Source: a virus (lineage: Duplodnaviria; Caudoviricetes). From it: a DNA stretch of 29,601 bases. Below are positions 1-29,601 of the stretch, piece after piece (position 1 is the first letter of the stretch; every line of letters starts with the position of its first letter). The notes beneath the pieces were generated by a model, which did not search any database, had not been told where the DNA came from, and saw only the letters and a list, made by a program, of their open reading frames with translations. The stretch spans positions 1 through 29,601 of the IMG/VR virus record IMGVR_UViG_3300020042_003032. One strand, given 5' to 3'. The position numbers were made by a program, and so were the translations under genes.

Positions 1-2
1 AG

Positions 3-254
3 GCAGTACCAGCTACTCTAGAGGAAATCCTTACTAAAGTAATGGAATCACTACAACCTAAATTTGAAGAGTTACAAGCTAAATTTGACGAAATGGCTAT
101 CGCTCATTCAAATATGAAAGAAACTCTTTCTAGTGTATCTAAAAAAGCAACAGTACACAAACCAGCAGACACTAAAGTAAATTTAGGGAAAGCAAACACT
201 GGTAAAAACATCTCTAATACAGAGGCTAGAATAATGGCAGCATTATCAAACTAA
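3..254 (+). CDS. Capsid scaffold protein, C-terminal part (5'-truncated by the window edge)
   Basis: Frame is open from position 3 (AVPATLEEILTKVMESLQPK...). Coiled-coil, charged sequence lying directly upstream of the major capsid gene. Confidence 0.65.
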   Translation, partial: AVPATLEEILTKVMESLQPKFEELQAKFDEMAIAHSNMKETLSSVSKKATVHKPADTKVNLGKANTGKNISNTEARIMAALSN

Positions 255-288
255 TTAATTAAAAATAAACTTAAAAAAATAAAACACA

Positions 289-1200
289 ATGCCAAACCAA
301 CCAACAATTACCTCAAATTATGCCGGAGAATTTGCCGGTAAATATATCGCAGCTGCGGTATTAAGTGCGAACACAATCGCAAACAATGCAGTTACTGTAA
401 TACCAAACGTAAAATACAAAGCAACAGTTAAGAAAGCAGTTATTTCTGGTTTAGTAGCAGATGCAACTTGCGATTTTACAGATGCTGGAACAGTTACTTT
501 GTCTGACAAAGTTTTAACAGTAGCAGAAAAACAAGTTAACCTACAATTATGTAAGACTCCATTCGAGCAAGATTGGGAAGCGACATCAATGGGTTTCAGT
601 TCATTCGATGTTATGCCAGCAACTTTCTCAGATTTCTTTATTGCTAAAGTTTTAAAAGATATCGCTATCGATACAGAAACTTTCTTATGGAATGCTACTA
701 ACGGACTTGGTAAATTATTGAAAACAGACGGAGCAACAGTTATTGCTACTCCTTTGACAATTACTTCAAGTAATGTTATTGCTGAAATGGGCCGAGTAGT
801 TGACGGAATTCCAGCAGCATTATACGGAAGTGAAGACTTAAGACTTTACGTTTCTCAAAACGTTGCAAAAGCATACGTAAGAGCGTTAGGAGGTTTCTCT
901 GTAGCTGCTACTTCAAATGCGGGTGTTAACGCTGCCGGTACAACTTGGTACAATGGTGGCGAATTAACTTTCGACGGAGTTACAATCTTTGTTGCAAATG
1001 GTTTACCAGCAAACACAATGGTAGCTTCTGAAATCTCAAACTTATTTGTAGGATTCGGATTGGCTGACGATGCAAATGTTGTTAAGACGATTGATATGGC
1101 CGACATCGACGGAAGCAAAAATGTAAGATTTATTGCACGTTTCTCAAGAGGCTTACAAGTAGGTATCGGAGCAGATTCAGTTACTTACGGAATAGCATAA
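289..1200 (+). CDS. Major capsid protein
   Basis: 303 aa following the scaffold and followed by a strong terminator. N-terminus (ITSNYAGEFAGKYIAAA) and overall composition resemble capsid proteins of Bacteroidota phages. Confidence 0.85.
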   Translation: MPNQPTITSNYAGEFAGKYIAAAVLSANTIANNAVTVIPNVKYKATVKKAVISGLVADATCDFTDAGTVTLSDKVLTVAEKQVNLQLCKTPFEQDWEATSMGFSSFDVMPATFSDFFIAKVLKDIAIDTETFLWNATNGLGKLLKTDGATVIATPLTITSSNVIAEMGRVVDGIPAALYGSEDLRLYVSQNVAKAYVRALGGFSVAATSNAGVNAAGTTWYNGGELTFDGVTIFVANGLPANTMVASEISNLFVGFGLADDANVVKTIDMADIDGSKNVRFIARFSRGLQVGIGADSVTYGIA

Positions 1201-1210
1201 ATTAAAATAT

Positions 1211-1235
1211 CCGCCTAGTAAAATAGGCGGTTTTT
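1211..1235 (+). terminator. Rho-independent terminator after the capsid gene
   Basis: CCGCCTA-GTAAAA-TAGGCGG stem-loop followed by TTTTT. Confidence 0.85.
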
Positions 1236-1258
1236 ATTAACTTTTAAATAAAAAAAAT

Positions 1259-1783
1259 ATGAGTACTTGCTTAATGGCTACGGGCCGGAAGTTACCGTGT
1301 AAGGACGTAGTAGGAGGAATCAAAAACATTTGGTTTGCTGACTATGGTACACTTGGAACTTTAACAATAACAAATGGTACACTTACTGCGATAACTGGTG
1401 CTGGGACAAACTTTTACAAATACGAAGTAAAAGGAGGAAATAATTTAGAGCAGACTATTACGTCAAGTGACGAAAATGGAACTACTTTTTATGCTCAGAC
1501 ACTTACTGCGGTATTGACAAAAATAGATGTTTTAACACAAGTAGAATTGCAGAAAGCTGTATCACAAAGACCTCACATTTTTGTAGAGGATAATAACGGC
1601 AACTATTTTGCAGTTGGTTTAACTAGAGGTTGTAATATAAACGGGACAGTTTCAACTGGAACTGCATTAGGAGATATGAACGGATTCACTTTGACAATTA
1701 CTGCCGAAGAGCCAATCCTTGCACCTTTTGTAACATCAACAGTAGTAACTTCTCGTTCATCTGCAACACAGATAACACCGTAA
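1259..1783 (+). CDS. Major tail (tube) protein, putative
   Basis: 174 aa, Thr/Gly-rich and beta-prone, with motifs CKDVVGGIK and GTALGDMNGFTLT. Bounded by terminators like a highly expressed structural gene. Confidence 0.7.
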   Translation: MSTCLMATGRKLPCKDVVGGIKNIWFADYGTLGTLTITNGTLTAITGAGTNFYKYEVKGGNNLEQTITSSDENGTTFYAQTLTAVLTKIDVLTQVELQKAVSQRPHIFVEDNNGNYFAVGLTRGCNINGTVSTGTALGDMNGFTLTITAEEPILAPFVTSTVVTSRSSATQITP

Positions 1784-1815
1784 TAAAGTCAGTCTATAGA
1801 GGTTTATTCGGTAAC

Positions 1816-1847
1816 AAAAAGGGAGTGATTAGTTTCACTCCTTTTTT
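1816..1847 (+). terminator. Rho-independent terminator, possibly bidirectional
   Basis: AAAAAGGGAGTGA-TTAGTT-TCACTCCTTTTTT. Confidence 0.85.
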
Positions 1848-1869
1848 ATTTACAAAAAAAAATAAAAAT

Positions 1870-1879
1870 ACGTTATATA
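1870..1879 (+). promoter_or_regulatory. Candidate late promoter motif ACGTTATATA, copy 1
   Basis: Exact 10-mer shared with 21154 and 28674. Lies just after a terminator and 3 nt before the ATG at 1883. Confidence 0.65.
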
Positions 1880-1882
1880 ACT

Positions 1883-2236
1883 ATGACAGTAGTAAACCAA
1901 GACAACGCATCTCAAAGATTTATAACAATCCCTAGAAACTACATAGAGGGAGAAACTTTAACTTTAAAAGTCAGAGACGAGCAAAAAAATACAGTCTTTA
2001 CTTTCTCGCCTACAAATGTATTTCCAAATGTTTACGATTTAGTTTACATAGACTGCAACTTAAATTGTTTATACGAGGGAGGATTCTTTGAATTAAGCGT
2101 CTTAAATGCATCGAGTGAGGTATTATATAAGGATAGACTATTTTCGACCAACCAGAGTGCTGAAAACTACTCTATAAACAATGGTAATTTTATTACTCTG
2201 AATACAAATAACAACGATTACATCGTACTTCAATAA
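1883..2236 (+). CDS. Hypothetical virion structural protein
   Basis: 117 aa ORF between the tail gene and portal, ending 1 nt before the portal start. Confidence 0.55.
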   Translation: MTVVNQDNASQRFITIPRNYIEGETLTLKVRDEQKNTVFTFSPTNVFPNVYDLVYIDCNLNCLYEGGFFELSVLNASSEVLYKDRLFSTNQSAENYSINNGNFITLNTNNNDYIVLQ

Positions 2237-2237
2237 T

Positions 2238-4085
2238 ATGAGAAAAAAAATAGAATTAAAACCTAAAAATACTGGCATTGGAATTGTCAATCTAGCTACT
2301 TATACAAGTCCTAGAATTATAGAAGTAAGGAATCAAGATTGGGTTTCTTATGGAGACGATAATAATTACTTCGGATATATTCAAGACCGTATAAACGGAA
2401 GTCCTACAAACAACGCAATCGTAAACGGAATAAGTCAAATGATATTCGGTCAAGGATTGGATGCAAGTGACGCTCAAATTAAACCGGAAGACTACGCACA
2501 AGCGATGTTATTATTTGACGATAGTACTACCGAGAGACTTTGCTACGATTTAAAAGCTATGGGACAGTGTGCTATTCAAGTTGTTTATTCAATAGACAGA
2601 ACTAGAATAGTAGAATGTAACCACTGGCCTATTGAAACTTTAAGAAGTGGAAAATGTAACGAGGACGGAGAGGTTGAGTTTTATTTTTATGCTGACGATT
2701 GGACGAAAGTAACTAGACAGAATCCGGCAAGACCGATTTCAGCATTTGGCACAAGTGAAGAGAGCGAAGAGATACTTTACATTAAACCATATAAAACTGG
2801 ATTCTATTATTATAGTCCTCCAGATTGGCAAGGAGGATTACAATATTGCGAACTAGAGGAGGAAATAAGCAACTACCATTTAAACAATATAATGAATGGC
2901 CTTGCTCCTTCTATGTTAATCAACTTTAATAATGGAACACCAACAGAGGACGAGCAAAGAAATATTGAAAGAGCCATAACTCAAAAGTTTTCTGGTACTT
3001 CAAACGCTGGAAGGTTTATTTTATCTTTTAATGATTCAAATGATTACGGAGCTACAATAACTCCGGTACAATTAAGCGATGCACACAATCAATACCAGTT
3101 TTTAAGTGACGAAAGTATGCGTAAAATAATGGTATCTCACAGAGTTATAAGTCCTTTACTTTTGGGTATTAAAGATAACACCGGATTCGGTAGTAATGCA
3201 GACGAATTACAGACTGCTACTATCTTAATGCAAAATACAGTTATTAAACCATTCCAAAACTTAATCATTAAGGAATTAAACAACATACTAGCTTATAACG
3301 GAATCACTTTAGATTTATACTTTAAAACTTTACAACCTTTAGACGCAGTAAATGACTTAACTATTACTGAAAAATCTAACACAATTATAGACGGAATAAA
3401 CTCTTTAAGTCCTTTAGTAGCAAACAAGGTACTAGAGTCTATGACTGCTGACGAGATTAGGTCTTTAGTAGGTTTAAAAGCAGCTATTACACAAGCAGCA
3501 CCGCAGCAAACTTTATCTAATGTAGATTTATCGGAGTTTGGAGAAGAGATAGACCTAGAACAATACGAACTTATTGACTCTAGAGCAGTAGATTATGACC
3601 AAGAGGAAAAATTAGACAGTCAATTAAGCGTACATTTAAGCACCGGTAGTGCCTATGGTAACGCAAATAGTATTGAAGACAGTCCGATTTATAAAGTTCG
3701 TTACAGATATGGAGGCAATCCTAATCCAGAGAGAAAGTTTTGTAAAGAAATGATGTCGGCAAATAAGATATATCGTAAAGAGGATATAAATAGAATGAGT
3801 ACAATGAATGTTAATCCGGGATTTGGTATGAGTCCTAATCCAAATGAGCCGTATGATGTGTTTCTATGGAAGGGAGGAGGCTTACTTTCTGACGAATTTC
3901 CCAACGGAACTTGCAAACATTTTTGGATTCGAGAAACTTACGCAAGTAAAGACAGAAGTACAAAAGTAGATGTATATAGTCCTAATGCTGATATCGTTAG
4001 TCCTAGCAAATCTATTGCAGAAAACGGATTTATTCCAACAGTAAACGACCCAAGAGCGTATATTGCTCCACACGATATGAGATAA
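2238..4085 (+). CDS. Portal protein with C-terminal extension
   Basis: 615 aa. Portal-like motifs YGDDNNY, SPTNNAI, NGLAPSMLINFNNG and FSGTSNAG. The C-terminal ~140 aa carry a Cys/His/Trp module (RKFC...WKGGG...CKHFW). Confidence 0.8.
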   Translation: MRKKIELKPKNTGIGIVNLATYTSPRIIEVRNQDWVSYGDDNNYFGYIQDRINGSPTNNAIVNGISQMIFGQGLDASDAQIKPEDYAQAMLLFDDSTTERLCYDLKAMGQCAIQVVYSIDRTRIVECNHWPIETLRSGKCNEDGEVEFYFYADDWTKVTRQNPARPISAFGTSEESEEILYIKPYKTGFYYYSPPDWQGGLQYCELEEEISNYHLNNIMNGLAPSMLINFNNGTPTEDEQRNIERAITQKFSGTSNAGRFILSFNDSNDYGATITPVQLSDAHNQYQFLSDESMRKIMVSHRVISPLLLGIKDNTGFGSNADELQTATILMQNTVIKPFQNLIIKELNNILAYNGITLDLYFKTLQPLDAVNDLTITEKSNTIIDGINSLSPLVANKVLESMTADEIRSLVGLKAAITQAAPQQTLSNVDLSEFGEEIDLEQYELIDSRAVDYDQEEKLDSQLSVHLSTGSAYGNANSIEDSPIYKVRYRYGGNPNPERKFCKEMMSANKIYRKEDINRMSTMNVNPGFGMSPNPNEPYDVFLWKGGGLLSDEFPNGTCKHFWIRETYASKDRSTKVDVYSPNADIVSPSKSIAENGFIPTVNDPRAYIAPHDMR

Positions 4086-4087
4086 CT

Positions 4088-4591
4088 ATGGCAACTACAC
4101 TATTCATAACACAGACAGACCTAAAAGCAAATACTATTTTAAATGGTAATTGTGATCCGGATTTATTTATGCAGTTTATTAAAATTGCACAACAGATGCA
4201 CGTACAAAATTATTTAGGTACAAAATTATACGATGCTATTACTACTAAAATAAATGCATCTACCTTAACCGGAGATTATTTAAACTTGGTTAGGGATTAC
4301 GTCCAGCCTATGTTGATTCATTTTGCTATGATTGACTACTTACCATTTGCAAACTACCAGATCCGTAACGGAGGAGTATTTAAACATCGTAGTGAAAACT
4401 CCGAAACACCAAGTAAAGAAGAGTTAGACATATTAGTCCAAAAGCATAGAACTTTTGCAGACTTTTACGCTACTCGTTTTATAGATTATATGGGTATAAA
4501 TGCAGCAGCTAAATTTCCAGAGTACTGGACCAATAGGGATAGCGATATGTATCCAGACCAAAAAGCTAATCCTTGTAATTGGGTACTATGA
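4088..4591 (+). CDS. Head-tail adaptor/connector protein, putative
   Basis: 167 aa, predicted helical, immediately after the portal (AQQMHVQNYLGTKLY). Confidence 0.55.
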   Translation: MATTLFITQTDLKANTILNGNCDPDLFMQFIKIAQQMHVQNYLGTKLYDAITTKINASTLTGDYLNLVRDYVQPMLIHFAMIDYLPFANYQIRNGGVFKHRSENSETPSKEELDILVQKHRTFADFYATRFIDYMGINAAAKFPEYWTNRDSDMYPDQKANPCNWVL

Positions 4592-4686
4592 AAGAGCCAA
4601 AAAATAAGTTTATCGCATATAAGATAAAGAAAGAAAACTTACAGAAAGTTAAGCAATACTTAAGCAAATTAAATAAAACGAAATGA
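4588..4686 (+). CDS. Small basic hypothetical protein (32 aa), not in the ORF track
   Basis: MKEPKNKFIAYKIKKENLQKVKQYLSKLNKTK; ATGA overlaps with both neighbours. Confidence 0.55.
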   Translation: MKEPKNKFIAYKIKKENLQKVKQYLSKLNKTK

Positions 4687-5018
4687 GTTATAATTTTACA
4701 CATATAAAGGGAGATACATTCGAGGCCGTTAACTTTGCTTTGCTAAAAAATAATGTAGTTATAAATCTTACCGGTGCAACAATTAGAATGCAGCTACGAA
4801 GTGAATGCGGAGGCCTTATTGCATTATCTTTGACATCTGTAGCAAGTGCTGGTATAACAATTACTAACGCTGCTGGAGGATTATTTAAAATAAACAAACA
4901 AATCATAAATATAGCATCCGGTAACTACTTATATGATTTAGAAATCTTATTTTCAGACGGAACTATAAAGACTTGGTTAAGTGGAGAATTTTTAATTGAA
5001 TGCGATATAACTAGATAA
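4683..5018 (+). CDS. BppU-N-like / tail-fibre-associated Ig-like protein
   Basis: Pattern GDTF...NLTGATIRMQLR...GNYLYDLEI...G..KT...G typical of baseplate-upper-protein N-terminal-like domains. Confidence 0.55.
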   Translation: MSYNFTHIKGDTFEAVNFALLKNNVVINLTGATIRMQLRSECGGLIALSLTSVASAGITITNAAGGLFKINKQIINIASGNYLYDLEILFSDGTIKTWLSGEFLIECDITR

Positions 5019-5019
5019 G

Positions 5020-6775: not shown

Positions 6776-6781
6776 AATAAA

Positions 6782-6949
6782 ATGATTCCTCAATCCTTTA
6801 AAATCTATACTTTGAATACTGCATCAATGCTAATTTCATTCAGTAATATAGAGCAAACATTAAAAATAACTCTATTGACTGTATCGATAGTCTATACAAT
6901 TATACAAACGATTAAACTCTTAAATAAAAAAGATGACACAAATAAGTAA
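6782..6949 (+). CDS. Second holin/antiholin-like small membrane protein (55 aa), not in the ORF track
   Basis: MIPQSFKIYTLNTASMLISFSNIEQTLKITLLTVSIVYTIIQTIKLLNKKDDTNK; hydrophobic core with charged C-tail, overlapping the endolysin start. Confidence 0.6.
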   Translation: MIPQSFKIYTLNTASMLISFSNIEQTLKITLLTVSIVYTIIQTIKLLNKKDDTNK

Positions 6950-7388
6950 ACATTTAACTCTAGAGGAGTTAACCTATTCTGCAACTGCAATTAAATTAGG
7001 AATTGTTAATGTACCTAATCAACTACAAACAGAAAATTTAAAGACATTAGCTCTAAAAGTATTCGAACCAGTAAGAGAACATTTTGGAGTGCCTATACAT
7101 ATCTCATCCGGTTATAGAATAATGAATCTTAACCAAGCATTAAACGGAAGTATTACTAGCCAACATTGTAGAGGAGAAGCTATCGACATCGATATGAAAG
7201 GCGACAAGGTTAGTAATGCTCAAATATTTCACTGGATTAAAGATAATTTAAAGTATGACCAATTAATTTGGGAGTTTGGAGATAAAAAAAATCCGGATTG
7301 GGTACACGTTTCATATACGAAAGAAAACAGACAACAAACTTTAAGAGCAATCAAAGTTAACGGTAAAACACATTACGAGAAGTTTTAA
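6933..7388 (+). CDS. Endolysin, peptidase M15 family (Zn peptidase)
   Basis: SGYR, SQHxxGEAID and WVHVS zinc-binding motifs. Confidence 0.9.
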   Translation: MTQISKHLTLEELTYSATAIKLGIVNVPNQLQTENLKTLALKVFEPVREHFGVPIHISSGYRIMNLNQALNGSITSQHCRGEAIDIDMKGDKVSNAQIFHWIKDNLKYDQLIWEFGDKKNPDWVHVSYTKENRQQTLRAIKVNGKTHYEKF

Positions 7389-7465
7389 GCCACTAAAATA
7401 CTTTTTTGGTATACTTATATAGTTTTAAAATTATTGTCCTTTAAAACGCTTTAAATTGATTAATT

Positions 7466-7666
7466 ATGATAATAGCACTTTTATTTGTATTTAGTTTATT
7501 CCTAGTAATTAATTTTGCAAACTGCGATGTTGTATTTGCACCGATTAAAGGATTGATGTTTGGAGCATTATATAACGATGAAATATTTGACGATGAGACA
7601 GAGCATACTATTCAAGTATTGCTCTTTTTTTTATCAATTAATTTTATTTGGAGTACATTCGAGTAA
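7466..7666 (+). CDS. Hypothetical membrane protein
   Basis: 66 aa with hydrophobic N- and C-terminal segments. Confidence 0.5.
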   Translation: MIIALLFVFSLFLVINFANCDVVFAPIKGLMFGALYNDEIFDDETEHTIQVLLFFLSINFIWSTFE

Positions 7667-7852
7667 TAAATTTAGTAAGAATTTTAGCACTCTGTTAAGT
7701 CCTATAAAATAAGGGATTTTTCGCTAGTTTAAAGAAAAAGAAAAAGTAAGGTAAATATACCTTTATTAAAAATTTGTTGATAAAATAGCCTTTAAAATCG
7801 ATTTTAGCGTTTTTTCTGTATACATTTACATAAAATAACTAAAAATAAAATT

Positions 7853-8689
7853 ATGTCAAAATACCAGTATTTGAATAGTAATATTTTAGAATTACTGCAG
7901 TCTAATTTTAATAATACAGACATCGCAAGGGAGTTAATTCCAGAGGGAGATTATACAGAAATTGAAAATTTACGGAAGTATATATCTAAAATTAAGAGTA
8001 AAGATTTAGAAAATTTAGATCCGTATACTTTTGGAAATCCGAATAACATTTTAATAATTGGAGACTTGCACGCTCCATTTAATTTGCCTAGTTATTTAGA
8101 ATTTTGTTTAGAGCAACAAAAAAAGTTTAAATGTGGGACAGTAGTTTTTATCGGAGACGTAATAGACAATCACTATTCAAGTTATCACGAGAGTGATCCG
8201 GATGGAATGTCTGCCGGAGACGAACTAGACATCGCAATTTGCGAATTGCAAAAGTATTACAGAGTATTTCCAGAGGCAACTGTAATTATAGGCAATCACG
8301 ATAGATTGGTTTATCGTAAAGCATTTACTGGAGGAGTTTCTAAACGTTGGATTAAAGAGTACAAAGACGTATTAAAAGTCCCTAACTGGAATTTTGTAGA
8401 GAGTCTGGACCTATTCGATGTAAATATTAATCACGGAGAGGGAGGCACTGCCAGAATGAAAATGAAAAAAGAATTACAGAGCCAGATTCAAGGACATTTA
8501 CATTCGGATTTATATGTCGATTTTATAGTAGGTAAGAACTTTAGAATCTTTGGAATGCAAGTAGGATGCGGGATTGATTTTAAGAGTTATGCTATGGCCT
8601 ATGGTAAAAACTTTAAGAAACCAGCTATCGGATGTGGAGTACTTTTAAATAAGGGAACTCTGCCAATAGTGATACCAATGCACTTATAA
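7853..8689 (+). CDS. Calcineurin-like metallophosphoesterase with N-terminal helical/HTH-like region
   Basis: All five motifs present: GDLH, GDVID, GNHD, HG, GHLH. Confidence 0.85.
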   Translation: MSKYQYLNSNILELLQSNFNNTDIARELIPEGDYTEIENLRKYISKIKSKDLENLDPYTFGNPNNILIIGDLHAPFNLPSYLEFCLEQQKKFKCGTVVFIGDVIDNHYSSYHESDPDGMSAGDELDIAICELQKYYRVFPEATVIIGNHDRLVYRKAFTGGVSKRWIKEYKDVLKVPNWNFVESLDLFDVNINHGEGGTARMKMKKELQSQIQGHLHSDLYVDFIVGKNFRIFGMQVGCGIDFKSYAMAYGKNFKKPAIGCGVLLNKGTLPIVIPMHL

Positions 8690-9895: not shown

Positions 9896-10404
9896 AAACA
9901 GAAAACGACAACGGAAATAATATTTTACTAATAGCTATTGTACTAGCTTTAATTACTGCAATAGTTTTAACGTCTTGCGGTAGCAGAAAGGTCCAGAAGT
10001 CACAAACCAAAGAAAGCGAGACAAATGTGGAATCGACTACCGAAAAAGTACAGAATAATTTAACAGACAATACTAAAATAATTGACAGTTCGTCAAGCGA
10101 TGAGTTAGAGATTAGTCCGGTATCTGACACAATTCCTATGGTTGTAAATGGAATAACGTACAAAAACGCTAAAATTACACGTAAAAAAACTAAAAACAAT
10201 ATAAGTATAGTAAAAGATGTAAAAGTCCAGCATAAAGCACAAAAAAGCGGTTTAAAGACGGTTAAAAAAGACTTAATAATCGAAAGGAAAGTAATAGACA
10301 GAAAACAATCATTCTGGTGGTTACTTTGGTTTTTACTTTTAATACCGGCATATTACTTATGGAGAAAGTATAATATGTCAAAATTATTTTTTTTGTTTAA
10401 ATGA
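9892..10404 (+). CDS. Lipoprotein with C-terminal transmembrane helix; unimolecular spanin-like
   Basis: Hydrophobic signal and lipobox LTS-C29, soluble middle region, C-terminal FWWLLWFLLLIPAYYLW followed by RK. Confidence 0.65.
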   Translation: MKTENDNGNNILLIAIVLALITAIVLTSCGSRKVQKSQTKESETNVESTTEKVQNNLTDNTKIIDSSSSDELEISPVSDTIPMVVNGITYKNAKITRKKTKNNISIVKDVKVQHKAQKSGLKTVKKDLIIERKVIDRKQSFWWLLWFLLLIPAYYLWRKYNMSKLFFLFK

Positions 10405-10952
10405 AAGATAAGAAGTGCAAAGTTTGTCAAACTAAATTTACTCCGGTGCAATTCGCTCAAGCAGTCTGCAATTATAAGTGTGCTATTGAACACTCAAAGA
10501 ATCTTAAACAACAAAAAGAGCAAAGAGAATGGAAAGCAGAGAAAGCCGTTTTAAGAGACAAACTTAAAACTTTAGGACAATACGAGGCAGAGGCAAAAAG
10601 ATCGTTTCAAAAGTACATTAGAATGCGAGATAATAAACAACCTTGCATAAGTTGTGGAATAGAAAACACAGAACTCTGGGACGGAGGCCATTTTAAAAAA
10701 GCAGAGATATACTCTGGAGTTATATTTGATGAGAGTAACTGCCATAAACAATGCAGAAAGTGTAACAGATTTCTAGGAGGCAATGAATTAAATTACAGAT
10801 CTGGACTTATTCAGAGATACGGAATAGAATACACAGACCAGATAGAAGAGAAAGCAAACAACACACGCAACTACAAGTTTACAAAAGAGGAACTAATCGC
10901 AAAGAAATTAAAATACGATATTTTAATAAAAGAGTTTGTCAAGTCAAAATAA
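10401..10952 (+). CDS. ninG: NinG/Rap-family recombination endonuclease
   Basis: CKVC...CNYKC zinc ribbon; YIRMRD..PCISCG, DGGHF and NCHKQCRKCN HNH-like motifs. Confidence 0.88.
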   Translation: MKDKKCKVCQTKFTPVQFAQAVCNYKCAIEHSKNLKQQKEQREWKAEKAVLRDKLKTLGQYEAEAKRSFQKYIRMRDNKQPCISCGIENTELWDGGHFKKAEIYSGVIFDESNCHKQCRKCNRFLGGNELNYRSGLIQRYGIEYTDQIEEKANNTRNYKFTKEELIAKKLKYDILIKEFVKSK

Positions 10953-13420: not shown

Positions 13421-14332
13421 ATGCTAATAGATTATAATAAACAATTAGATATACTCCGCCAGATTAGGTCTGGTAAACTCAAAGAGGGATTAAAACTAGA
13501 TATACCACAAATAGATGAGTATATAAGATTTAAACCTAGCAATTTTAATATAGTACTAGGACACGCAAACGTAGGTAAAACAACTAGCATTCTTTATTTA
13601 ATGCTTTGTTACTCTTTAAAGCACGATTTGAAATGGCTAGTTTGCAGCACAGAGAATGATTCATATTCTTTGATTAGAAAGTTAGTTGAATTCCTAGACG
13701 AGACTCCGATAAATTTAGTTTCTGAAAGCAACTTTAAAACTCACACAGATTTTATTAATAAGCATTTTAAATTTGTAGATAACGCAACAATGTACGATTA
13801 TCATTCTGCGATTGATATATTTAAAAAAGTAAAAAAAGAGTTTAACTACAATGGAATATTACTAGACCCGTACAATGCTTTGATTAAAGATAACGATTTA
13901 ATGAAAAATCTAGGAGGACACGAATACGATTATCAAGCGTGTACCGAAATGAGAATGTTTTGCAAAGAATTTAAAATTAGTCTATGGTTAAATACTCACG
14001 CAAACACAAACGCATTAAGACAAGTTTACAGAGCAGATCATCCATTCGCTGGGCATCCACTTCCACCAATGGCAAGTGACGTAGAGGGAGGAGGAAAGTT
14101 CGTAAACAGAGCAGACGATTTTATAGTAGTACACCGGTTAACTTTGCATCCACAATTATACACAACTACGATGCTGCATATACGAAAGATAAAAGAGATT
14201 GAAACCGGAGGCCGTCCTACTAGCATAGATAATCCGATTGAAATTGTAGCTTTGCAGAATAATGTAGGATTTAGTATAGACGGTAAATCAATATTGAGGA
14301 CTATAAAAGAAAGCCAACTAAATTTTTTGTAA
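13421..14332 (+). CDS. DnaB-like (SF4) replicative helicase
   Basis: Walker A GHANVGKT, STE, Walker B LLDPYN, and DVEGGGKFVNRAD motif. Confidence 0.8.
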   Translation: MLIDYNKQLDILRQIRSGKLKEGLKLDIPQIDEYIRFKPSNFNIVLGHANVGKTTSILYLMLCYSLKHDLKWLVCSTENDSYSLIRKLVEFLDETPINLVSESNFKTHTDFINKHFKFVDNATMYDYHSAIDIFKKVKKEFNYNGILLDPYNALIKDNDLMKNLGGHEYDYQACTEMRMFCKEFKISLWLNTHANTNALRQVYRADHPFAGHPLPPMASDVEGGGKFVNRADDFIVVHRLTLHPQLYTTTMLHIRKIKEIETGGRPTSIDNPIEIVALQNNVGFSIDGKSILRTIKESQLNFL

Positions 14333-14872
14333 ATGAAAATACTCGATGTCCTATTCGTAAAGCATTCCACTTGGTTAAAATACGTTAAATCATTTGGTTG
14401 CCCGGATGACATCGCAGAGGATTACGTCCAAGAGATGTACATTAAAATCTATAATTATAGTCAGACTAAAAATAACGATTTAATGTATGACGGAGAAGAG
14501 GTAAACTATTTTTTTGTATACGTCACTTTAAAAAATATGTACTTCGATGATTTACGTAAAAACAAAAAGAAAATATACGTAAACATAGAGGACATTATTC
14601 TAGTAGAAGAGGAAATCGAATACTCGGAGAATAAGTTTTATTTCCAGAAAGATTTAGTTAGTAACTGGATAAAAGAGTTAAACAACGAAATAGACTCAAT
14701 AGAAGACCATACAGAGTACAAAGCTAGTCTCTGTTATATAAAGTTCATTTATCAAAAAATATTCGTTGAGAGTTACTCTATTACAGATTTAAGCGAAGAG
14801 ACAAAATTAAGTTACTGGAGCATCCGTAACACAGTTAAAAGAATCAAAGAACAAATAAAAAATGAGACATAA
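14333..14872 (+). CDS. Phage-encoded ECF-like RNA polymerase sigma factor
   Basis: Region 2 pattern (AEDYVQEMYIK...LKNMYFDDLRK) and C-terminal region 4 HTH (YSITDLSEETKLSYWSIRNTVKR); 179 aa. Confidence 0.78.
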   Translation: MKILDVLFVKHSTWLKYVKSFGCPDDIAEDYVQEMYIKIYNYSQTKNNDLMYDGEEVNYFFVYVTLKNMYFDDLRKNKKKIYVNIEDIILVEEEIEYSENKFYFQKDLVSNWIKELNNEIDSIEDHTEYKASLCYIKFIYQKIFVESYSITDLSEETKLSYWSIRNTVKRIKEQIKNET

Positions 14873-15408: not shown

Positions 15409-15614
15409 CAAAAGAAGACTGGATCTGGTGGCAGACATTCCGAGATAATTTAAGACATACGATTAGCAACGATGAGTATTTAAAAATAAGCCAATTACAC
15501 GCTCACTATTTTGACCACAAAGTTAACTATCCTTGCAAATGCAGTCCTAAAATAATTCAAAGTTATATCGATGATTTGAATGAATTTTACATAAAAAATC
15601 AAACATCAAAATGA
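15405..15614 (+). CDS. Hypothetical protein with CxC motif
   Basis: 69 aa containing PCKCSP; coupled to both neighbours. Confidence 0.6.
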   Translation: MTKEDWIWWQTFRDNLRHTISNDEYLKISQLHAHYFDHKVNYPCKCSPKIIQSYIDDLNEFYIKNQTSK

Positions 15615-16021
15615 GTAACGAGACATCACACCACAAGTGGGAACGAGGTATTATATACTTGCTTAATTTAGACGGTTGGGATTTAGAATGGACTGGAGAA
15701 GAGTTTGAGCATTACGATGCAAGAGGCAAAACACCGAAAGGATTTGATTGCATAATTGAGTTTAAATTAAGGAATGCATATTATCCAACAAAAGTACTAG
15801 AAAAATACAAGTATGATAAGTTAATGGAAAATGATTGCTTAAAATTTTACTATGTATTTGACTATAGAGGGAACTATCTTTATTATTTAGATTCTTTAGA
15901 ACTGCCAGAGCCAAACATAATAAACTGCAAAGCAACTCAAAAATTTGAAAGAGACGAATTTGTAAACAAAATTGTTTACTTTTTGTCAGAGAGCCAAGCA
16001 TCAATAATAAATAAATACTAA
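15611..16021 (+). CDS. PD-(D/E)XK nuclease-fold protein
   Basis: E...YDARG...IIEFKLR catalytic-type pattern. Confidence 0.6.
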   Translation: MSNETSHHKWERGIIYLLNLDGWDLEWTGEEFEHYDARGKTPKGFDCIIEFKLRNAYYPTKVLEKYKYDKLMENDCLKFYYVFDYRGNYLYYLDSLELPEPNIINCKATQKFERDEFVNKIVYFLSESQASIINKY

Positions 16022-16055: not shown

Positions 16056-16080
16056 TAAACAAACCAAAACAAAAAATAAT

Positions 16081-16197
16081 ATGAATGAATTAATCAAAAC
16101 AGAGGCACTACTCAAAGAAATAATACAAGACAGAGAAAGAGCCAAAAAAGAACTAGAGCATCAAATAGAGGAAATAACTAGACTTGTAACAATATGA
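16081..16197 (+). CDS. Small coiled-coil protein (38 aa), not in the ORF track
   Basis: MNELIKTEALLKEIIQDRERAKKELEHQIEEITRLVTI; follows the promoter and an AAACCAAAACA leader; ATGA overlap with the exonuclease. Confidence 0.6.
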   Translation: MNELIKTEALLKEIIQDRERAKKELEHQIEEITRLVTI

Positions 16198-16904
16198 TAG
16201 TATTAATTGACGCAGATAGTTTAATCTGGAGCAGTTGTTATAAGCAAAAAGAAACTCCAGAGGATACCGGTTACCATAACATCGAAGAGGCAAAAGACAA
16301 GTACAACGAAGTAGTAATGAAAATAATCAATACTATCGAACTGGATCACGAAGTCGATAAGGTTATCACATTCGCTGGTGCAAGAGGCAACTTTCGCAAA
16401 CAGATAAGCAAAACATACAAAGCAAACAGAATAGACAGAGAAATCCCTCCGATATTAAACGAACTCCAAGACTATGTAAAAGAGCAATACCAAGCCAAGC
16501 AAGGTTACGGAGTAGAGACAGACGATTTAGTAGCTACCTATTGGACTAACTTAACAGAGACATTTGGAAGAGACGAAGTTATAATAGTTTCAATAGACAA
16601 AGACTATAAGCAGTTACCTTGTATTATTTATGACTATCATTATAAAAAACAATGCTACCACAATATAACAGAGGCAGAGGCAAAGTATAATTTTTATGAG
16701 CAAATGATAATGGGAGACACAGCCGACAATGTAAACTTCTGCAAAGGATATGGCAAAGCATATTGTAAAAACGCATTTAAAGACTGTTTAAGCGATTATA
16801 ATTATATTAGAGCAGTATTTAGTCTATTTAAAAAAATATACAAGCAGAAAGCACGAGAGCGATTTATAGAATGTTACTTACTTTTAAAATTAAAAACAAA
16901 ATAA
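16194..16904 (+). CDS. 5'-3' exonuclease / flap endonuclease (PIN fold)
   Basis: LIDADS, NFRK...YKANR, ETDD, DKD and GDTADN acidic motifs. Confidence 0.88.
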   Translation: MIVLIDADSLIWSSCYKQKETPEDTGYHNIEEAKDKYNEVVMKIINTIELDHEVDKVITFAGARGNFRKQISKTYKANRIDREIPPILNELQDYVKEQYQAKQGYGVETDDLVATYWTNLTETFGRDEVIIVSIDKDYKQLPCIIYDYHYKKQCYHNITEAEAKYNFYEQMIMGDTADNVNFCKGYGKAYCKNAFKDCLSDYNYIRAVFSLFKKIYKQKARERFIECYLLLKLKTK

Positions 16905-17285
16905 ATGGAATACAAATTAATAGCCAACGAGATAAAAGATACACTAAAAGTAAATGTATTTGAGAACTCACGAAAGAGACCAATAATAGACGCAAGGAGT
17001 TTATTCTGTTACATACTACGCAAAGATTTTAATTTAACGTTACATAGTATAGCAGACATATACAAGAGCAAAGGAAAAAATTATAATCACGCAACAGTAA
17101 TTCACTCTGTTAATAATTACGAGATAGCATCCAAAGACGATAGAAGACTTGAAGAGATAAGAGCCAAAGTATTAAAACTAACTAATCCTCAAGCAGTACT
17201 TATAAATAGAATAAGAGACATATACGACATAGATAGACTACAAGGATTACACAACTTAATAGATTTCCAAGAACAACAAATCTAA
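16905..17285 (+). CDS. DnaA C-terminal-like HTH DNA-binding protein
   Basis: SRKR.IIDAR...LR...LTLHSIA...NHATVIHSV resembles DnaA domain IV. Confidence 0.7.
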   Translation: MEYKLIANEIKDTLKVNVFENSRKRPIIDARSLFCYILRKDFNLTLHSIADIYKSKGKNYNHATVIHSVNNYEIASKDDRRLEEIRAKVLKLTNPQAVLINRIRDIYDIDRLQGLHNLIDFQEQQI

Positions 17286-17291
17286 TAAAAT

Positions 17292-17678
17292 ATGGAAAGA
17301 ATATATCACAGATATGAGTATTGGGAATGTTATAAGAATGGTTTTTTTCGTAATGTTTCTGGAGAAGAAAAAAAAGAATTGTCAAAAAAAGTAATAGAAC
17401 TTTTTACAGATACAAAATTGACTGAAAAATATATGAATAAAGTTATAAATGAATGGCATTATTCGTGTGAGCATAACTTAACAAATATATCATTAAACAG
17501 AATAGCTTGGTTAGGTCAATCTGCTTGTTGTTTATATGCCAAAATACCATACAGTATAACAATGGAAAATTGGCGTTTTGTAGACGAGGAGAACAGAAAT
17601 ATAGCTTGTGAAATAGCAGACAAAATAATAAAAGAATATCAAACCAAAAACAAACAATTATGCCTAAACATTATTTAA
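17292..17678 (+). CDS. Uncharacterised protein heading the IbrAB-like cassette
   Basis: 128 aa, aromatic- and Cys-rich (YH..EYWEC...W..SCEHNLTN...NRIAWLGQSACC); overlaps the PAPS-reductase-like gene by 19 nt. Confidence 0.65.
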   Translation: MERIYHRYEYWECYKNGFFRNVSGEEKKELSKKVIELFTDTKLTEKYMNKVINEWHYSCEHNLTNISLNRIAWLGQSACCLYAKIPYSITMENWRFVDEENRNIACEIADKIIKEYQTKNKQLCLNII

Positions 17679-18874
17679 ATCAAAACGTTTGCGATGCAAG
17701 TGTTGAAAGGATAAAATATACATTTGATAATTTTGAGAAAATATACCTTTCATTTTCTGCTGGCAAAGATAGTACTGTTATGCTCCATTTAGTTATGGAC
17801 GAAGCTATAAAAAGAAATGTAAAAATAGGTTTATTAATAGTTGACTTGGAAGGTCAGTATAAATTAACAATAGACCATATGACAGAATGCGTAGAAATGT
17901 ATAAAGATAATTTAGAAGTTTATTGGGTATGTTTACCGATACATTTAAGAAATGCAGTTTCTGTATTTAAACCATTTTGGAAGTGTTGGGATAAAGAAGT
18001 AAAATCCGATTGGATTAGAGAAGTGCCTAAATTAGGCATAACAGACGAAAGTTATTTTCCATTTTTTAGAGACGGAATGGAGTTTGAAGAGTTTGTACCA
18101 GAATTTGGAGAATGGTATTCTCAAGGAAAAACTTGTGCTTGTTTAGTTGGGATTAGAGCAGACGAAAGTTTGAATAGATTTAGAACTATTGCAAGTGATA
18201 AAAAAATAACATTTAATCAAAAACAATGGACTACAAAAGTAACAGATAATGTGTTTAACGTATATCCTATTTATGATTGGAAAACAGAAGATATATGGAT
18301 TTACCATAGCAAAAACAAAGATAAAAGACACAATCATTTATACGACCTTATGCAAAAGTCTGGTTTATCTATTCATTTGCAGAGAATTTGCCAACCATAT
18401 GGAGACGACCAAAGAAGAGGTTTATATTTATTTCATTTAATAGAGCCAGAAACTTGGGCAAAAGTAGTAGCTAGAGTTGAGGGTGCTAATAGCGGTGCTT
18501 TATATGTTCAAGATACCGGAAACATAAATGGATATGGTAAAATAACAAAACCAATGCATCATACTTGGAAATCATTTTCTGAATTAATATTAAACACTTT
18601 ACCGCAAGTAACGTCTGAACATTATAAAAATAAAATATATACTTTTGTAAAATGGTGGGAAGAGAGAGGATATATAGACGGATTGCCAGACGAAGCTCCT
18701 AGCATTTTGGAAAGCGAAAGAGTAGCACCAAGTTGGAGACGTATTTGTAAATCATTATTAAGAAATGATTATTGGTGCAAAGGATTAGGTTTTACTCAAC
18801 ACAAAACAGATGCATATAATAAATACTTAAAACTAAAAAAAGAACAAAGAGAACTAAACAATTTTAAACTATAA
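17660..18874 (+). CDS. ibrA: PAPS-reductase-like PP-loop protein (DUF3440 / IbrA / YbdN family)
   Basis: PP-loop SFSAGKDS, GIRADESLNR, YPIYDW...DIW, RICQPYG and C-terminal SWRRICK...NDYWCKGLGF. Confidence 0.85.
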   Translation: MPKHYLNQNVCDASVERIKYTFDNFEKIYLSFSAGKDSTVMLHLVMDEAIKRNVKIGLLIVDLEGQYKLTIDHMTECVEMYKDNLEVYWVCLPIHLRNAVSVFKPFWKCWDKEVKSDWIREVPKLGITDESYFPFFRDGMEFEEFVPEFGEWYSQGKTCACLVGIRADESLNRFRTIASDKKITFNQKQWTTKVTDNVFNVYPIYDWKTEDIWIYHSKNKDKRHNHLYDLMQKSGLSIHLQRICQPYGDDQRRGLYLFHLIEPETWAKVVARVEGANSGALYVQDTGNINGYGKITKPMHHTWKSFSELILNTLPQVTSEHYKNKIYTFVKWWEERGYIDGLPDEAPSILESERVAPSWRRICKSLLRNDYWCKGLGFTQHKTDAYNKYLKLKKEQRELNNFKL

Positions 18875-18878
18875 TATT

Positions 18879-19529
18879 ATGACAACAAAAATTATTGAAC
18901 TGATTAACGAATTACAGTCTTTGGATATAGACAGTAGAGTAAATGCATTAAACGAAATTAAAATAGCGATGCACAATATTAGTCCTATGAAAACAGAGCC
19001 AGTAGATTGTGTTTTATGGGTAAAAAATAATAGCGTACACGCAAATGATTATAATCCAAATAGTGTTGCTCCTCCAGAAATGGAATTATTAAGACTTTCA
19101 ATTTCGGCAGACGGATACACTCAACCTATTGTATCGATGCTAGAAGATAACGGAGAAACTAGAGAAGTAATAGACGGATTCCATAGAAATAGAGTAGGCA
19201 AAGAATGCGAGGAAATACAAAAAAGAGTACACGGATATTTGCCAGTAGTAACAATTAACGAAGATAGAACAAAAATAAACGATAGAGTAGCTTCAACAAT
19301 AAGACATAATAGAGCAAGAGGTAAACACAAAATAGAAGCTATGAGTGATATTGTTATCGACCTAAAAAAAAGAAACTGGAGCGATGAAAAAATAGCTAAA
19401 AATTTAGGAATGGATAAAGACGAAGTTTTAAGACTTTGTCAAATAGGAGGCCTTGTTGAATTGTTTGCAGATAAAGAATTTAGTCAAGCGTGGGAAGCAG
19501 AAATATACGAACTTAATAACGAAATATAA
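18879..19529 (+). CDS. ibrB: ParB/Srx-like protein (IbrB / YbdM family)
   Basis: ANDYNPNSVAPPE, DGYTQPIV, IDGFHR, STIRHNRARGKH and a C-terminal HTH (WSDEKIAKNLGM). Confidence 0.88.
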   Translation: MTTKIIELINELQSLDIDSRVNALNEIKIAMHNISPMKTEPVDCVLWVKNNSVHANDYNPNSVAPPEMELLRLSISADGYTQPIVSMLEDNGETREVIDGFHRNRVGKECEEIQKRVHGYLPVVTINEDRTKINDRVASTIRHNRARGKHKIEAMSDIVIDLKKRNWSDEKIAKNLGMDKDEVLRLCQIGGLVELFADKEFSQAWEAEIYELNNEI

Positions 19530-22932: not shown

Positions 22933-22933
22933 T

Positions 22934-26607: not shown

Positions 26608-26756
26608 TAGAGCAAATATTAAACTTACTAAAAGCATCAAGCCATTACGGACAAAGTGAATTGATAGAAATAGCAAAAGGAAAAAACAAACATCCAGAAA
26701 CTTGGCTGGAAGCATTTAAACAACATCAAAGACTACTCAAATGGCACAAGAAATAG
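26604..26756 (+). CDS. Small hypothetical protein (50 aa), not in the ORF track
   Basis: MIEQILNLLKASSHYGQSELIEIAKGKNKHPETWLEAFKQHQRLLKWHKK; overlaps both neighbours. Confidence 0.6.
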   Translation: MIEQILNLLKASSHYGQSELIEIAKGKNKHPETWLEAFKQHQRLLKWHKK

Positions 26757-28669
26757 ACATTAATTTAAACGTAAACGCAGAACAAGCGGACAAGTCTTTA
26801 GGTAGTTTAAAAAGTCAGTTAAGGGAAGCACAACAAGACGTACAAACGTTAGCCGATAAGTTTGGAGCAACTTCAAAAGAGGCAGTAGAAGCAGCTAAAA
26901 GAGCAGCAGAACTTAAAGACAGAATAGGAGACGCTAAAGCATTAACTGATGCATTCAATCCCGATGCAAAATTCAAGGCTTTAAGTGCATCATTAACTGG
27001 AGTGGCTGGAGGATTTTCAGTTGTTACTGGTGCTATGGGTGCGTTTGGAGGAGAAAGTAAAGTAGTAGAGCAAAGTCTTTTAAAAGTTCAGTCTGCTATG
27101 GCTATGGCTTCGGGACTTCAAGCAGTAGGAGAAAGTATAGACTCATTTAAACAATTAGGTGCGGTTGTAAAATCTTTTACAATAGTCCAAAGGATTAGCA
27201 CAGTAGCACAAACAATTTACAATGCAGTTATGGCTGCCAATCCAATAGGTGCTATTGTCGTTGCAGTTACCGCTTTAATAGCTGCCGGATATGCTTTGAT
27301 AAAAATGTTTCAAGCTAGTAGCGATGCAACACAAAAAGCAGAACAAGCAAACAAAGCATTAAACAAAGAATTAGATAATCAAGTTAAAAGTCAAAAGGCA
27401 GCATCACAAGAGTCAGACTTGGCTAGGGATGCTCAACTAGGAATGGCGAAAGCATCTGGTAAAAGTGCAGCAGAGGTCAGAAAATTAGCAGTAGAATTAG
27501 CAAACCAAGAAGTTCAACAAAAATTAACAAATGCTCAAACTTTAAGAGCAATAGCAATAGAGGCAATTAGAGTAGCTGGTTTAGAGGATGCAACAGATGC
27601 AGAGAAAGAAACGGCAAAGAGAGCATTAAAAGAATTTAACGAGGCAAACGATTCATTAAAAACATCCGTATTAAATAGACGGAAACTATTAATTGAAAAT
27701 AAAATAGCAGAAACTCAAGAGCAAACAGATGCAAGTAAAAAAGCAAATGATGAGGCAAAAGCAAAAAGAGATGAAGCCACTAAAAAAGAATTAGAGGCTA
27801 TAAAAAAAGCAAATGATGATAAGTTAGCAGAAGAAAAAAGATTAAAAGAGGAAAGACGAAAGCTATTTTTAGATGCTATAAAAGCCGCTGACGATTTAGA
27901 AAAAAGTTTAAAAGAAAGTGTTGAAACTCCAGCAGAAAAAGAAAACAGAGAGTATCTAGAAAAGAAAAAAATACTTGAGGATAACTATCGTTCAACTGAA
28001 TTATTAGATAAGCAACACAAAGAAAAATTACAAGAGATATCAAACGAATCATTTGCCGCTGATGCCAAGGCAGCAATGGAAAGAGATGCAAAGAAAAAAG
28101 AAGAGGAGGATAAAAAGGCAGCAGAGGACGTAGATAGAGAACAAAAAAGAACTGCTGCTATTCAATCATTCAAAGAAAATTTAAATAATATTATTTCTGG
28201 AATTGAGGCAAGTGGAATAGCAAAATCAAAAGCCGGTCAAGCATTATCTAAAACTTTAGCACTTACTCAAATTGGAATTGATACGGCAGTCGCTATTGGT
28301 AACGCAAGTAAATTAGCAACAGCAGAGGGAGCAAAAGCAGCGGCAGTAGGAGGACCGGGAGCTGGTACGATTGCTAGGATAGTTTCTTATGCATCCAGTT
28401 ACGCACAAGTATTAACTAATTTTATGAGAGCTAAAACTATGTTATCTAGTGGAGGAAGTGGAGGCGGTGGAGGAGCAGCCGGAGGTGGTGGAGGAGCAGA
28501 AGCAGCAGCACCAAGTTTCAACGTAGTAGGACCGAGTGGAGCGAATCAAATAGCTGAAAGTATAGGAGCAAGAGAAAGCCAACCTTTAAAAGCATTCGTA
28601 GTAGGAGGAGACGTAAGTACTCAACAAGGTCTTAATCGTTCAATCGTACAAAATGCAACTTTGGGATAA
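26741..28669 (+). CDS. Tape measure protein
   Basis: 642 aa Ala/Lys/Glu-rich coiled coil, ANPIGAIVVAVTALIAAG hydrophobic segment, Gly-rich linker near the C-terminus. Confidence 0.8.
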   Translation: MAQEIDINLNVNAEQADKSLGSLKSQLREAQQDVQTLADKFGATSKEAVEAAKRAAELKDRIGDAKALTDAFNPDAKFKALSASLTGVAGGFSVVTGAMGAFGGESKVVEQSLLKVQSAMAMASGLQAVGESIDSFKQLGAVVKSFTIVQRISTVAQTIYNAVMAANPIGAIVVAVTALIAAGYALIKMFQASSDATQKAEQANKALNKELDNQVKSQKAASQESDLARDAQLGMAKASGKSAAEVRKLAVELANQEVQQKLTNAQTLRAIAIEAIRVAGLEDATDAEKETAKRALKEFNEANDSLKTSVLNRRKLLIENKIAETQEQTDASKKANDEAKAKRDEATKKELEAIKKANDDKLAEEKRLKEERRKLFLDAIKAADDLEKSLKESVETPAEKENREYLEKKKILEDNYRSTELLDKQHKEKLQEISNESFAADAKAAMERDAKKKEEEDKKAAEDVDREQKRTAAIQSFKENLNNIISGIEASGIAKSKAGQALSKTLALTQIGIDTAVAIGNASKLATAEGAKAAAVGGPGAGTIARIVSYASSYAQVLTNFMRAKTMLSSGGSGGGGGAAGGGGGAEAAAPSFNVVGPSGANQIAESIGARESQPLKAFVVGGDVSTQQGLNRSIVQNATLG

Positions 28670-28673
28670 ATAA

Positions 28674-28683
28674 ACGTTATATA
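28674..28683 (+). promoter_or_regulatory. Candidate late promoter motif ACGTTATATA, copy 3
   Basis: Exact copy 14 nt before the ATG at 28698, heading the head operon. Confidence 0.65.
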
Positions 28684-28697
28684 AAAAAATAATTAAT

Positions 28698-29601
28698 ATG
28701 AAATTAATCGAGTTAATAATTGACGAGGAAATGGAGTTGTCCGGTATTGATGCAATCAGTATCGTAGAATCTCCAGCCATAGAGGAAGATTTTATCGCTT
28801 TAAAAACAGAGCAAAAAGAATACAAGTTTGCCGAAGTAGACAAAGAGAAAAAAATCATTATGGGTGCTATGTTAGTACCAGATAAACCAATTTACAGAAG
28901 AGACGAAAACGAAGGAGAGTATTATATTTATTTTAGTAAAGATACAATCCGTAAAGCTATGGAGTTATTCTTTGTAAATGGGAATCAGTCAAACGCAACC
29001 TTTGAGCATATGGAATCTATTACCGGTTTAACTATGGTAGAGAGTTGGATAGTAGAAGACACAGACAAAGACAAATCTAAACTTTACGAATTAAACGTCC
29101 CGGTAGGAACTTGGATGGGTACGATTAAAGTAAACAACGATAAGATCTGGAATGACTTTATTAAAACTGGCAAGGTTAAGGGATTCTCTATTGAGGGATA
29201 TTTTGCAGACAAAGCAAAGACTCCACTTTCAAAAGTTGATGAGACAGAAGAGCAAATACTAGCCGGATTAGAATTGTTATCTATAAGATATCACATTCAA
29301 GATTTTGAAAAAAAAACTCTACTAGAGACTTATAATGACTATCCAAAAGAGGCATCTGAAAACGCAAAAATAGCTTTAAGATATGCCGAAGAGAATGGAT
29401 GGGGAAGTTGTGGAACACCGGTAGGAAAACAAAGAGCAAATCAATTAGCAAACGGAGAAAACATAAGTGAGGAAACTATCTCACGAATGGCAAGTTTTAA
29501 AAGACACAAACAAAATAGCCAAAAAGAATTAGGAGACGGATGCGGTAGATTAATGTGGTTAGCTTGGGGTGGCGATGCTGGTATTGAATGGGCAAGTAAT
29601 A
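28698..29601 (+). CDS. Prohead serine protease (XkdF-like), 3'-truncated by the window edge; not in the ORF track
   Basis: Open to the end of the window: MKLIELIIDEE...AISIVESPAIEEDF...EH...VESWI...GTW...GKVKGFSIEG, followed by an extra YNDYP...WGGDAG module. Confidence 0.8.
   Translation, partial: MKLIELIIDEEMELSGIDAISIVESPAIEEDFIALKTEQKEYKFAEVDKEKKIIMGAMLVPDKPIYRRDENEGEYYIYFSKDTIRKAMELFFVNGNQSNATFEHMESITGLTMVESWIVEDTDKDKSKLYELNVPVGTWMGTIKVNNDKIWNDFIKTGKVKGFSIEGYFADKAKTPLSKVDETEEQILAGLELLSIRYHIQDFEKKTLLETYNDYPKEASENAKIALRYAEENGWGSCGTPVGKQRANQLANGENISEETISRMASFKRHKQNSQKELGDGCGRLMWLAWGGDAGIEWASN

Follow-up and report, generated by a model that had tools for sequence, protein, structure and literature searches.

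Viruses are known to encode nucleases aimed at host DNA, as in the case of T4 endonuclease II and of the chlorovirus CviAII restriction-modification (R-M) system, which acts at CATG; T4 protects itself by means of modified cytosine and chloroviruses by means of a methylase. Sequence reading by small single domains occurs among small PD-(D/E)xK nucleases, a fold that is shared by the structure-specific enzyme Hjc. Here we analyse a 29,601-bp tailed-phage genome (IMG/VR record IMGVR_UViG_3300020042_003032, G000 in our set; "the window" denotes this whole record throughout), which lacks CATG, CAGG and CCTG, together with its gene for a 136-residue putative nuclease, the best predictor of this purge and a gene that a preliminary description of the sequence had not mentioned. 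As with T4 endonuclease II and CviAII, this would be a sequence-selective viral nuclease from which the virus's own genome has to be spared; unlike in those cases, the window phage would be protected solely by having lost its sites, and its target would switch between alleles. In the accessible part of Rusinov et al. 2018 (PMC6286503), avoidance of sites by phages is reported, with few exceptions, for orthodox Type II systems of the host. Like those phages, the window has lost short sites completely through silent changes, but there the enzymes are the host's and the sites almost only palindromes, whereas the strongest hole in the window is an asymmetric 4-mer that tracks an allele of a phage gene.

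Exact counts over the window, given here and throughout as observed/expected, were 0/54.3 for CATG, 0/52.0 for CAGG and 0/23.3 for CCTG against a Markov expectation, as the preliminary description had claimed from a manual reading, with 182 CAAG and 34 CACG sites present. Across 300 synonymous-codon shuffles of the 27,117 coding bases, CAGG and CCTG together averaged 86.7 sites (minimum 71) and CATG averaged 41.9 (minimum 30), so that the observed zeros lie far under both nulls. The codon choices pointed out in that description were likewise correct: before a codon starting with G, histidine is CAC in 22/22 cases (elsewhere CAT 65, CAC 39), glutamine is CAA in 94/94 and proline is CCT in 0/71 (70/179 elsewhere), and glycine is never preceded by an ACA, GCA, CCA or TCA codon. 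On the coding strand alone, CAGG stands at 0/52 and CCTG at 0/23; since neither orientation survives although the genes are almost all on the + strand, the filtering operates on duplex DNA. Across 84 positions of the window that align with CAGG or CCTG sites of relatives, we observed 20 A>T, 19 G>A, 16 A>C, 4 C>G and only 3 C>T changes; this variety, in which C>T is seldom seen, indicates selection and not deamination. The loss of CATG, CAGG and CCTG is thus due to selection through silent codon choice. The preliminary description had proposed selection by a host defence on a short asymmetric site; selection on such a site stands, while the host is now the rival explanation.

The window further avoids GCGC (0/12), CGCG (0/9), CTNAG (4/92), CCNGG (4/21), CAATTG (0/13) and AAGCTT (0/13), none of which the preliminary description had noted; GATC is leaky (15/62) and CCGG over-represented (58/34). 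The accessible parts of Blow 2016 Table S4 and of Rusinov 2018 Additional file 4 (PMC6286503) list CGCG, CCNGG, GATC and CATG among Flavobacteriaceae restriction or methylation sites, and the avoidance of GATC, GCGC, CGCG, CCNGG and CTNAG is likely to be ordinary avoidance of host restriction sites. The 15 GATC sites are scattered from 4154 to 29144, and most of the closest kin have 0-3 per 45 expected, which suggests a recent relaxation in the window.

We compared the window with 80 capsid-defined loci and with a wider, redundant set of 596 loci of at least 4 kb. In the capsid set, 79 loci are CATG-purged; for CAGG, 36 loci are purged, 11 intermediate and 33 normal. The preliminary description had explained all three missing words by one specificity, CAKG (CMTG on the other strand), and had taken a separate loss of CATG and CAGG among relatives as a sign of two systems. 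That split formally exists, in that 33/80 capsid relatives are CATG-purged with normal CAGG, but two alleles of one phage gene account for it better than two host systems do; for the window genome itself a single CAKG specificity is the best reading and is probably right.

The gene in question encodes the putative nuclease, in which T5 and K111 occur in 14/14 CAGG-purged rows versus 0/30 other rows of the alignment. The CAGG-purged label requires 9 changes on a 79-row capsid tree and 5 on a 44-row nuclease tree, where 13 of the 14 purged rows sit in one 20-row group that spans phages with capsids only 69-70% identical to that of the window. Nine genomes with the K111 allele (K allele) have CATG 1/794, CAGG/CCTG 4/692, GATC 120/745 and CCGG 496/328, compared with CATG 0/450 and CAGG/CCTG 456/625 in eight non-K genomes. 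Of the 26 genes compared, the nuclease is the only one in which an invariant separating column covers all 18 genomes, and kin with a 96-97% identical DnaB and a 74-77% identical non-K nuclease have CAGG at partial levels. Among the K-allele rows, the copy of relative G028 has lost D36 and E50, and CAGG in that genome stands at 72/84. Out of sample, 4/5 nucleases fit the allele rule, the exception being that of G019. In the 62.6-kb relative G015 (L273-L275), CAGG/CCTG is nearly absent from the first 30 kb and normal afterwards, and this record looks like two phages joined. A beta-class phage methylase considered as a CAGG protector was set aside: it is present in five intermediate close loci, absent from three others and present in the purged L357, a pattern that is not decisive because it is confounded with lineage, and an informative solved relative was not found.

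Loss of CATG, in turn, accompanies the presence of the gene. CATG is purged in 59/59 homologue-bearing loci, with one site in total, compared with 256/586 among all classifiable loci. In records at least 90% complete it is purged in 19/19 with the gene versus 10/51 without, a split in which relatives are not independent, counts come mostly from 10-21-kb loci and three gene-bearing records below 90% completeness are excluded. Two further findings carry more weight than this split, which kinship inflates. The sole CATG-keeping member of the 80 capsid relatives (G025, 29/55) is missing the gene at the syntenic site and still avoids GGCC (0/18) and CCGG (4/26). A distant non-K homologue is also encoded by two otherwise unrelated 39-kb records of 45% GC (OX376641.1 and OX376640.1; L644, L645), in which no window ORF (open reading frame) is matched at E<1e-10; their CATG counts are 0/134 and 0/129, and their CAGG is normal. 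Across the 596 loci, no locus with normal CATG is purged of CAGG; this nesting is weak evidence, because CAGG purge was found only in the capsid family of the window.

The nuclease ORF is predicted to be a PD-(D/E)xK-fold protein. Putative catalytic residues E11, D36, E50 and K52 are invariant in 121/121 close sequences and in a 50-row alignment, the AlphaFold model (pLDDT 87.8) has the alpha-beta core with the E...D...E-x-K arrangement that defines the superfamily, and the fold matches agree. In a VIA-align search the best match was Hjc (1gef; Z 11.3, root-mean-square deviation 3.0, 104 residues aligned), which places the model among Hjc-like folds, followed at lower rank by RecU-type enzymes (Z 7.9), I-Ssp6803I (7.8), NhoI (7.3) and PvuII (6.3). 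Hjc/Hje structures (PDB 1gef, 2wcw, 1ob8) share the minimal fold and the size, at Z 10-11 over about 100 residues, but are only 11-16% identical to the window nuclease, whose segment 102-125 varies with the purged word. In the model, strands 102-107 and 117-125 of this segment flank a loop of lower confidence, and we infer that the segment reads DNA. A structure specificity of the Hjc type gives no reason to purge a word, and the association of allele and word weighs indirectly against a pure four-way-junction specificity. I-Ssp6803I, NhoI and PvuII have the same fold and a similar size but no detectable sequence similarity; in the window neither a cognate methylase nor an intron was found, and its specificity is deduced from the genome. 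The protein may be likened to a restriction enzyme turned on the host, though neither a methylase nor a sequence link to Type II R-M systems was found; lacking a cognate methylase in the window, it does not count as a Type II R-M member.

We found no match to the window nuclease in Pfam, PHROG, NCBIfam, PADLOC or PDB sequences, nor among cultured phage records, and no similarity to a known restriction endonuclease was detected in PADLOC, Pfam, NCBIfam or PDB, a class of enzymes that diverges beyond detection. The family nevertheless comprises 831 clusters at 50% identity, and one longer homologue was found; between the window and relative G004 the gene differs by 23 silent and 9 replacement codons. 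Language-model features place the window nuclease close to PF24579 (PDDEXK_14, a putative PD-(D/E)xK endonuclease of phages) at 0.96, whereas the PF24579 hidden Markov model failed to match the window-type gene in G001, G009, G013, G020, G023 and G030. PF24579 associates here with CCAG, and the window family with CATG/CAGG.

Such an association with CCAG/CTGG was found for a second type of small nuclease. Beside its degenerate gene, G028 carries a protein that belongs to the PDDEXK_14 group by features and structure, and the sole relative of this protein among public phage records is from the podovirus MW202828, which was picked for its protein similarity, ahead of any word count. CCAG/CTGG stands at 0/92 in G028, 0/64 in G550 and 4/294 in MW202828. 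A PF24579 search of 50 records, about 20 of them chosen for CCAG depletion and largely fragmentary, gave 3 matches, all CCAG-purged. The four leftover sites of MW202828 all lie inside CCWGG, as if Dcm-type host methylation protected them; G028 also lacks CTAG, and G550 and MW202828 also lack CCGG. CYAG, considered as an analogue in the form of a palindrome plus one mismatch, was at first nested in 16/16 cases and was then rejected on 11 loci in which CCAG is purged and CTAG normal. In a distant clade of the window's own nuclease family with a T-Q loop (L365, L366, L374, L391, L394, L410, L419, L421, L438), CCAG is partially depleted (2/35 to 28/61), more strongly than in the T-Y loci L392, L400 and L422, and the T-Q loop is possibly a third specificity. 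A third asymmetric 4-mer hole, GACC/GGTC, is found in L497, L498, L500 and L507 (0/16, 0/10, 0/13 and 0/13).

Table 1. Features of the window and of related records discussed in the text.
Feature	Position	Strand	Basis or remark
Genome-wide loss of CATG and CAGG/CCTG, both orientations, through synonymous codons	1..29601	.	Counts, shuffles
136-residue stand-alone PD-(D/E)xK-fold ORF, candidate site-specific nuclease (predicted CAKG)	15611..16021	+	Residues, fold
Strand-loop-strand, residues 102-125, with Q110-K111 (codons 15938-15943)	15914..15985	+	Model, allele tracking
Peptidase M15 endolysin; K107 (7251-7253) also tracks CAGG purge	6933..7388	+	Allele counts
NinG-family protein	10401..10952	+	PF05766, E 1.5e-39
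128-residue ORF, IbrA-like (PAPS reductase/DUF3440) and ParB-like cassette, accessory	17292..19529	+	Itself site-purged
PDDEXK_14-like small nucleases	G028 7660-8070 (L259); G550 16079-16459 (L650); MW202828 1-411 (L646)		All CCAG/CTGG-depleted

We consider it probable that the phage's own nuclease, a predicted cutter of CAKG/CMTG for which no methylase was found in the window, drove the purge of its genome, which would survive only through deletion of every site; the source of the CATG/CAGG purge is thus probably the phage nuclease rather than a host defence. The most likely mechanism is the cutting of non-self DNA by a solitary site-specific nuclease whose gene lies among the replication genes. 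The predicted cleavage of duplex DNA would be directed at host or competitor DNA, and the phage would be spared because its genome is without sites. Alleles with T110 would cut CATG, and the K111 allele would additionally accept CAGG/CCTG. The site would be read directionally and not as two relaxed half-sites, because a relaxed dimer that reads symmetrically would be expected to cut CCGG as well, a word abundant in the K-allele genomes. Speculatively, the widened K allele might still cut hosts that methylate CATG.

Several observations weigh against this reading. Lysine at position 107 of the endolysin predicts the CAGG purge almost as well as the nuclease allele does, and over more loci (K107: 19 purged, 3 normal; non-K107: 1 purged, 23 not) and co-varies with it across divergent capsid lineages, and the K-allele phages may share a host group of which this residue is the marker. 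Relative G019 has a T-Y allele yet CAGG 0/55; its nuclease is about 76% identical to that of G020 and its structural region 84-93%, and a recent gene swap is possible. In G005 (14236-14645; L634) the K-allele gene is interrupted close to the 5' end, where it lies in two overlapping frames, which may be a real break or an assembly error; CAGG is still 0/41. An exonuclease family also scores 49/50 for CATG purge, so presence and absence of the nuclease are confounded with kinship, and the two 45%-GC records are also at exact zero for GATC, AGCT, CCGG and GGCC. The 10 CATG-purged records without the gene, and CATG at 0/108 in G028 despite its degenerate copy, which probably needs another source, a host enzyme, show that a host can remove CATG by itself. 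In the fold comparison, Holliday-junction resolvases, which are structure-specific, come out ahead of site-specific enzymes. For the second nuclease type, all three PF24579 matches fall under the family cut-off, and the near-complete, CCAG-depleted G458 and G547 have no PF24579 match. Some of this would be expected if two host pressures were at work, namely an ordinary CATG Type II enzyme in nearly all hosts and an uncatalogued asymmetric enzyme, specific for CAGG/CCTG or CAKG, in a single group of hosts, with nuclease allele and endolysin K107 as host-group markers and the protein itself a junction resolvase, an explanation that we regard as unlikely but as the main rival. The accessible parts of the sources name CATG enzymes of Flavobacterium aquatile (FaeI, FatI and FatII; Rusinov 2018) and CATG R-M systems in Gillisia and Leeuwenhoekiella (Blow 2016), several other avoided words are Flavobacterium sites, asymmetric 4-bp Type II sites exist (CCTC/GAGG, CCGC/GCGG), and avoidance of CAGG and of CCGG is anticorrelated (rho -0.70), as differing host repertoires would give. 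CAGG/CCTG, CCAG, CAKG and CMTG are, on the other hand, not in the accessible part of the Rusinov 2018 site table (PMC6286503), in which the controls CATG, CCTC/GAGG, CCGC/GCGG and CTGA/TCAG were found; in that of Blow 2016 Table S4, cctg, cakg and cmtg were not found, and the best 2 of 10 cagg text matches were locus tags. G028, with endolysin K107, a degenerate nuclease and normal CAGG, is the sole case that splits the two predictors and favours the nuclease over an endolysin-marked host group. Two host pressures also sit poorly with the recurrence of CCAG purge beside a second nuclease type in an unrelated podovirus, and with the gene-less G025, which keeps CATG while other words are still avoided. 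Lambda NinG/Rap is a junction resolvase, and the presence of a NinG-family protein in the phage counts against a resolvase role for the nuclease ORF.

A division of labour, in which CATG is lost under host pressure and the K-allele nuclease is confined to CAGG/CCTG, so that CAKG would not be one motif, seems improbable to us. It would account for the CATG zero in G028 and for L012 and G010, whose nuclease alleles lie off the contigs and which have CAGG at sites absent from kin while CATG is at zero, and the 11 loci with CCAG purged and CTAG normal show that purely asymmetric purges occur; yet non-K homologues down to about 21-30% identity are always found in CATG-free DNA, which suggests CATG as the basic target of the family, and G025, without the gene, has CATG. 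Mutational decay by methyl-cytosine deamination, filtering at the mRNA level or an assembly artefact is very improbable, given the three C>T changes among replacements of relatives' CAGG sites, the loss of both orientations from the coding strand and the recurrence of the pattern in dozens of separately assembled contigs. A Type III R-M target was also rejected: no escape by retention of one orientation was found, since the window has no site in either and the eight other purged genomes have 0-2. To the suggestion of the preliminary description that the IbrAB-like cassette is involved, here by modifying DNA at CAKG, we attach almost no credence. Its PAPS-reductase domain is weakly similar to DndC (E 2.6e-6, far below cut-off), but close relatives that lack the cassette at its place between terS and the dnaA-HTH gene are purged to the same degree (L161-L165, L168, L170, L187), IbrA occurs in 0/49 related records (a search without a positive control), and only 1/80 IbrA-defined loci is CAGG-purged while 79/80 keep CAGG; the purged cassette-free relatives and the CAGG-keeping IbrA loci rule the cassette out as the cause. 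Motifs of Dnd and BREX type 4 systems (ACTC/CCTC/TCTC, GAAG, GACG, GAGC, GAAC, GATC and GGCC; BREX type 4 preprint) and the CxGCxG motif among the phosphorothioate/Dpd motifs compared in PMC10164549 likewise include none equal to CAGG/CCTG or CAKG in the accessible parts of these reports, although other alleles may exist. A literature search, with REBASE, most subscription papers and bioRxiv supplements outside its scope, found neither a CAKG/CAGG motif nor self-avoidance of such a kind.

The remaining genes of the window are those of a tailed phage, including portal, terminase, ERF, a DUF3127 single-stranded DNA-binding protein (SSB), DnaB-like, NinG and M15 endolysin genes. The nearest cultured capsid, of Nonlabens phage P12024S, is 32% identical, SSB relatives are mostly from Flavobacterium phages, and these similarities point to a host in the Flavobacteriia; no capsid-matching prophage was found in GTDB genomes. 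The record begins and ends within the prohead protease/scaffold region (28698-29601 and 1-254), where a short stretch appears to be missing. No methylase domain was found in a Pfam scan of 25 window ORFs, and no methylase motif in window ORFs of at least 90 residues, in a record that lacks a short stretch of the prohead-protease gene. Between the nuclease and terS lies an accessory-gene hot spot (window 16194-19519; also in G001, G003, G009, G013, G016, G020, G022 and G023), which holds the IbrAB cassette in the window and orphan N6/N4, D12 or C5 methylases in relatives. CAGG/CCTG sites present in homologues of the cassette are replaced in the window copy. On the host side, ACAGGA was unpurged in all 401 genomes of the family around a Flavobacteriaceae metagenome-assembled genome, the lowest ratio being about 0.9 of the reversed control, a result that is neutral between the explanations.

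The usual reading of a word hole in a phage genome is that host restriction left it, an inference that would need correction if the phage's own enzyme is responsible. We see an even chance that small Hjc-sized PD-(D/E)xK phage proteins, together with PDDEXK_14, are widespread methylase-free nucleases acting on non-self DNA, with self-protection by site erasure, targets switched by a few loop residues and specificities that can be read from word holes. If two host pressures were responsible, the data would lead one to expect two asymmetric restriction sites, as yet uncatalogued, among Flavobacteriia hosts. If the phage nuclease is responsible, the genomes would hold two 4-bp specificities new to the searched site table, CAKG and CCAG, on a 136-residue scaffold with a two-residue candidate switch, and k-mer holes could be used to assign targets to hundreds of unannotated phage nucleases.

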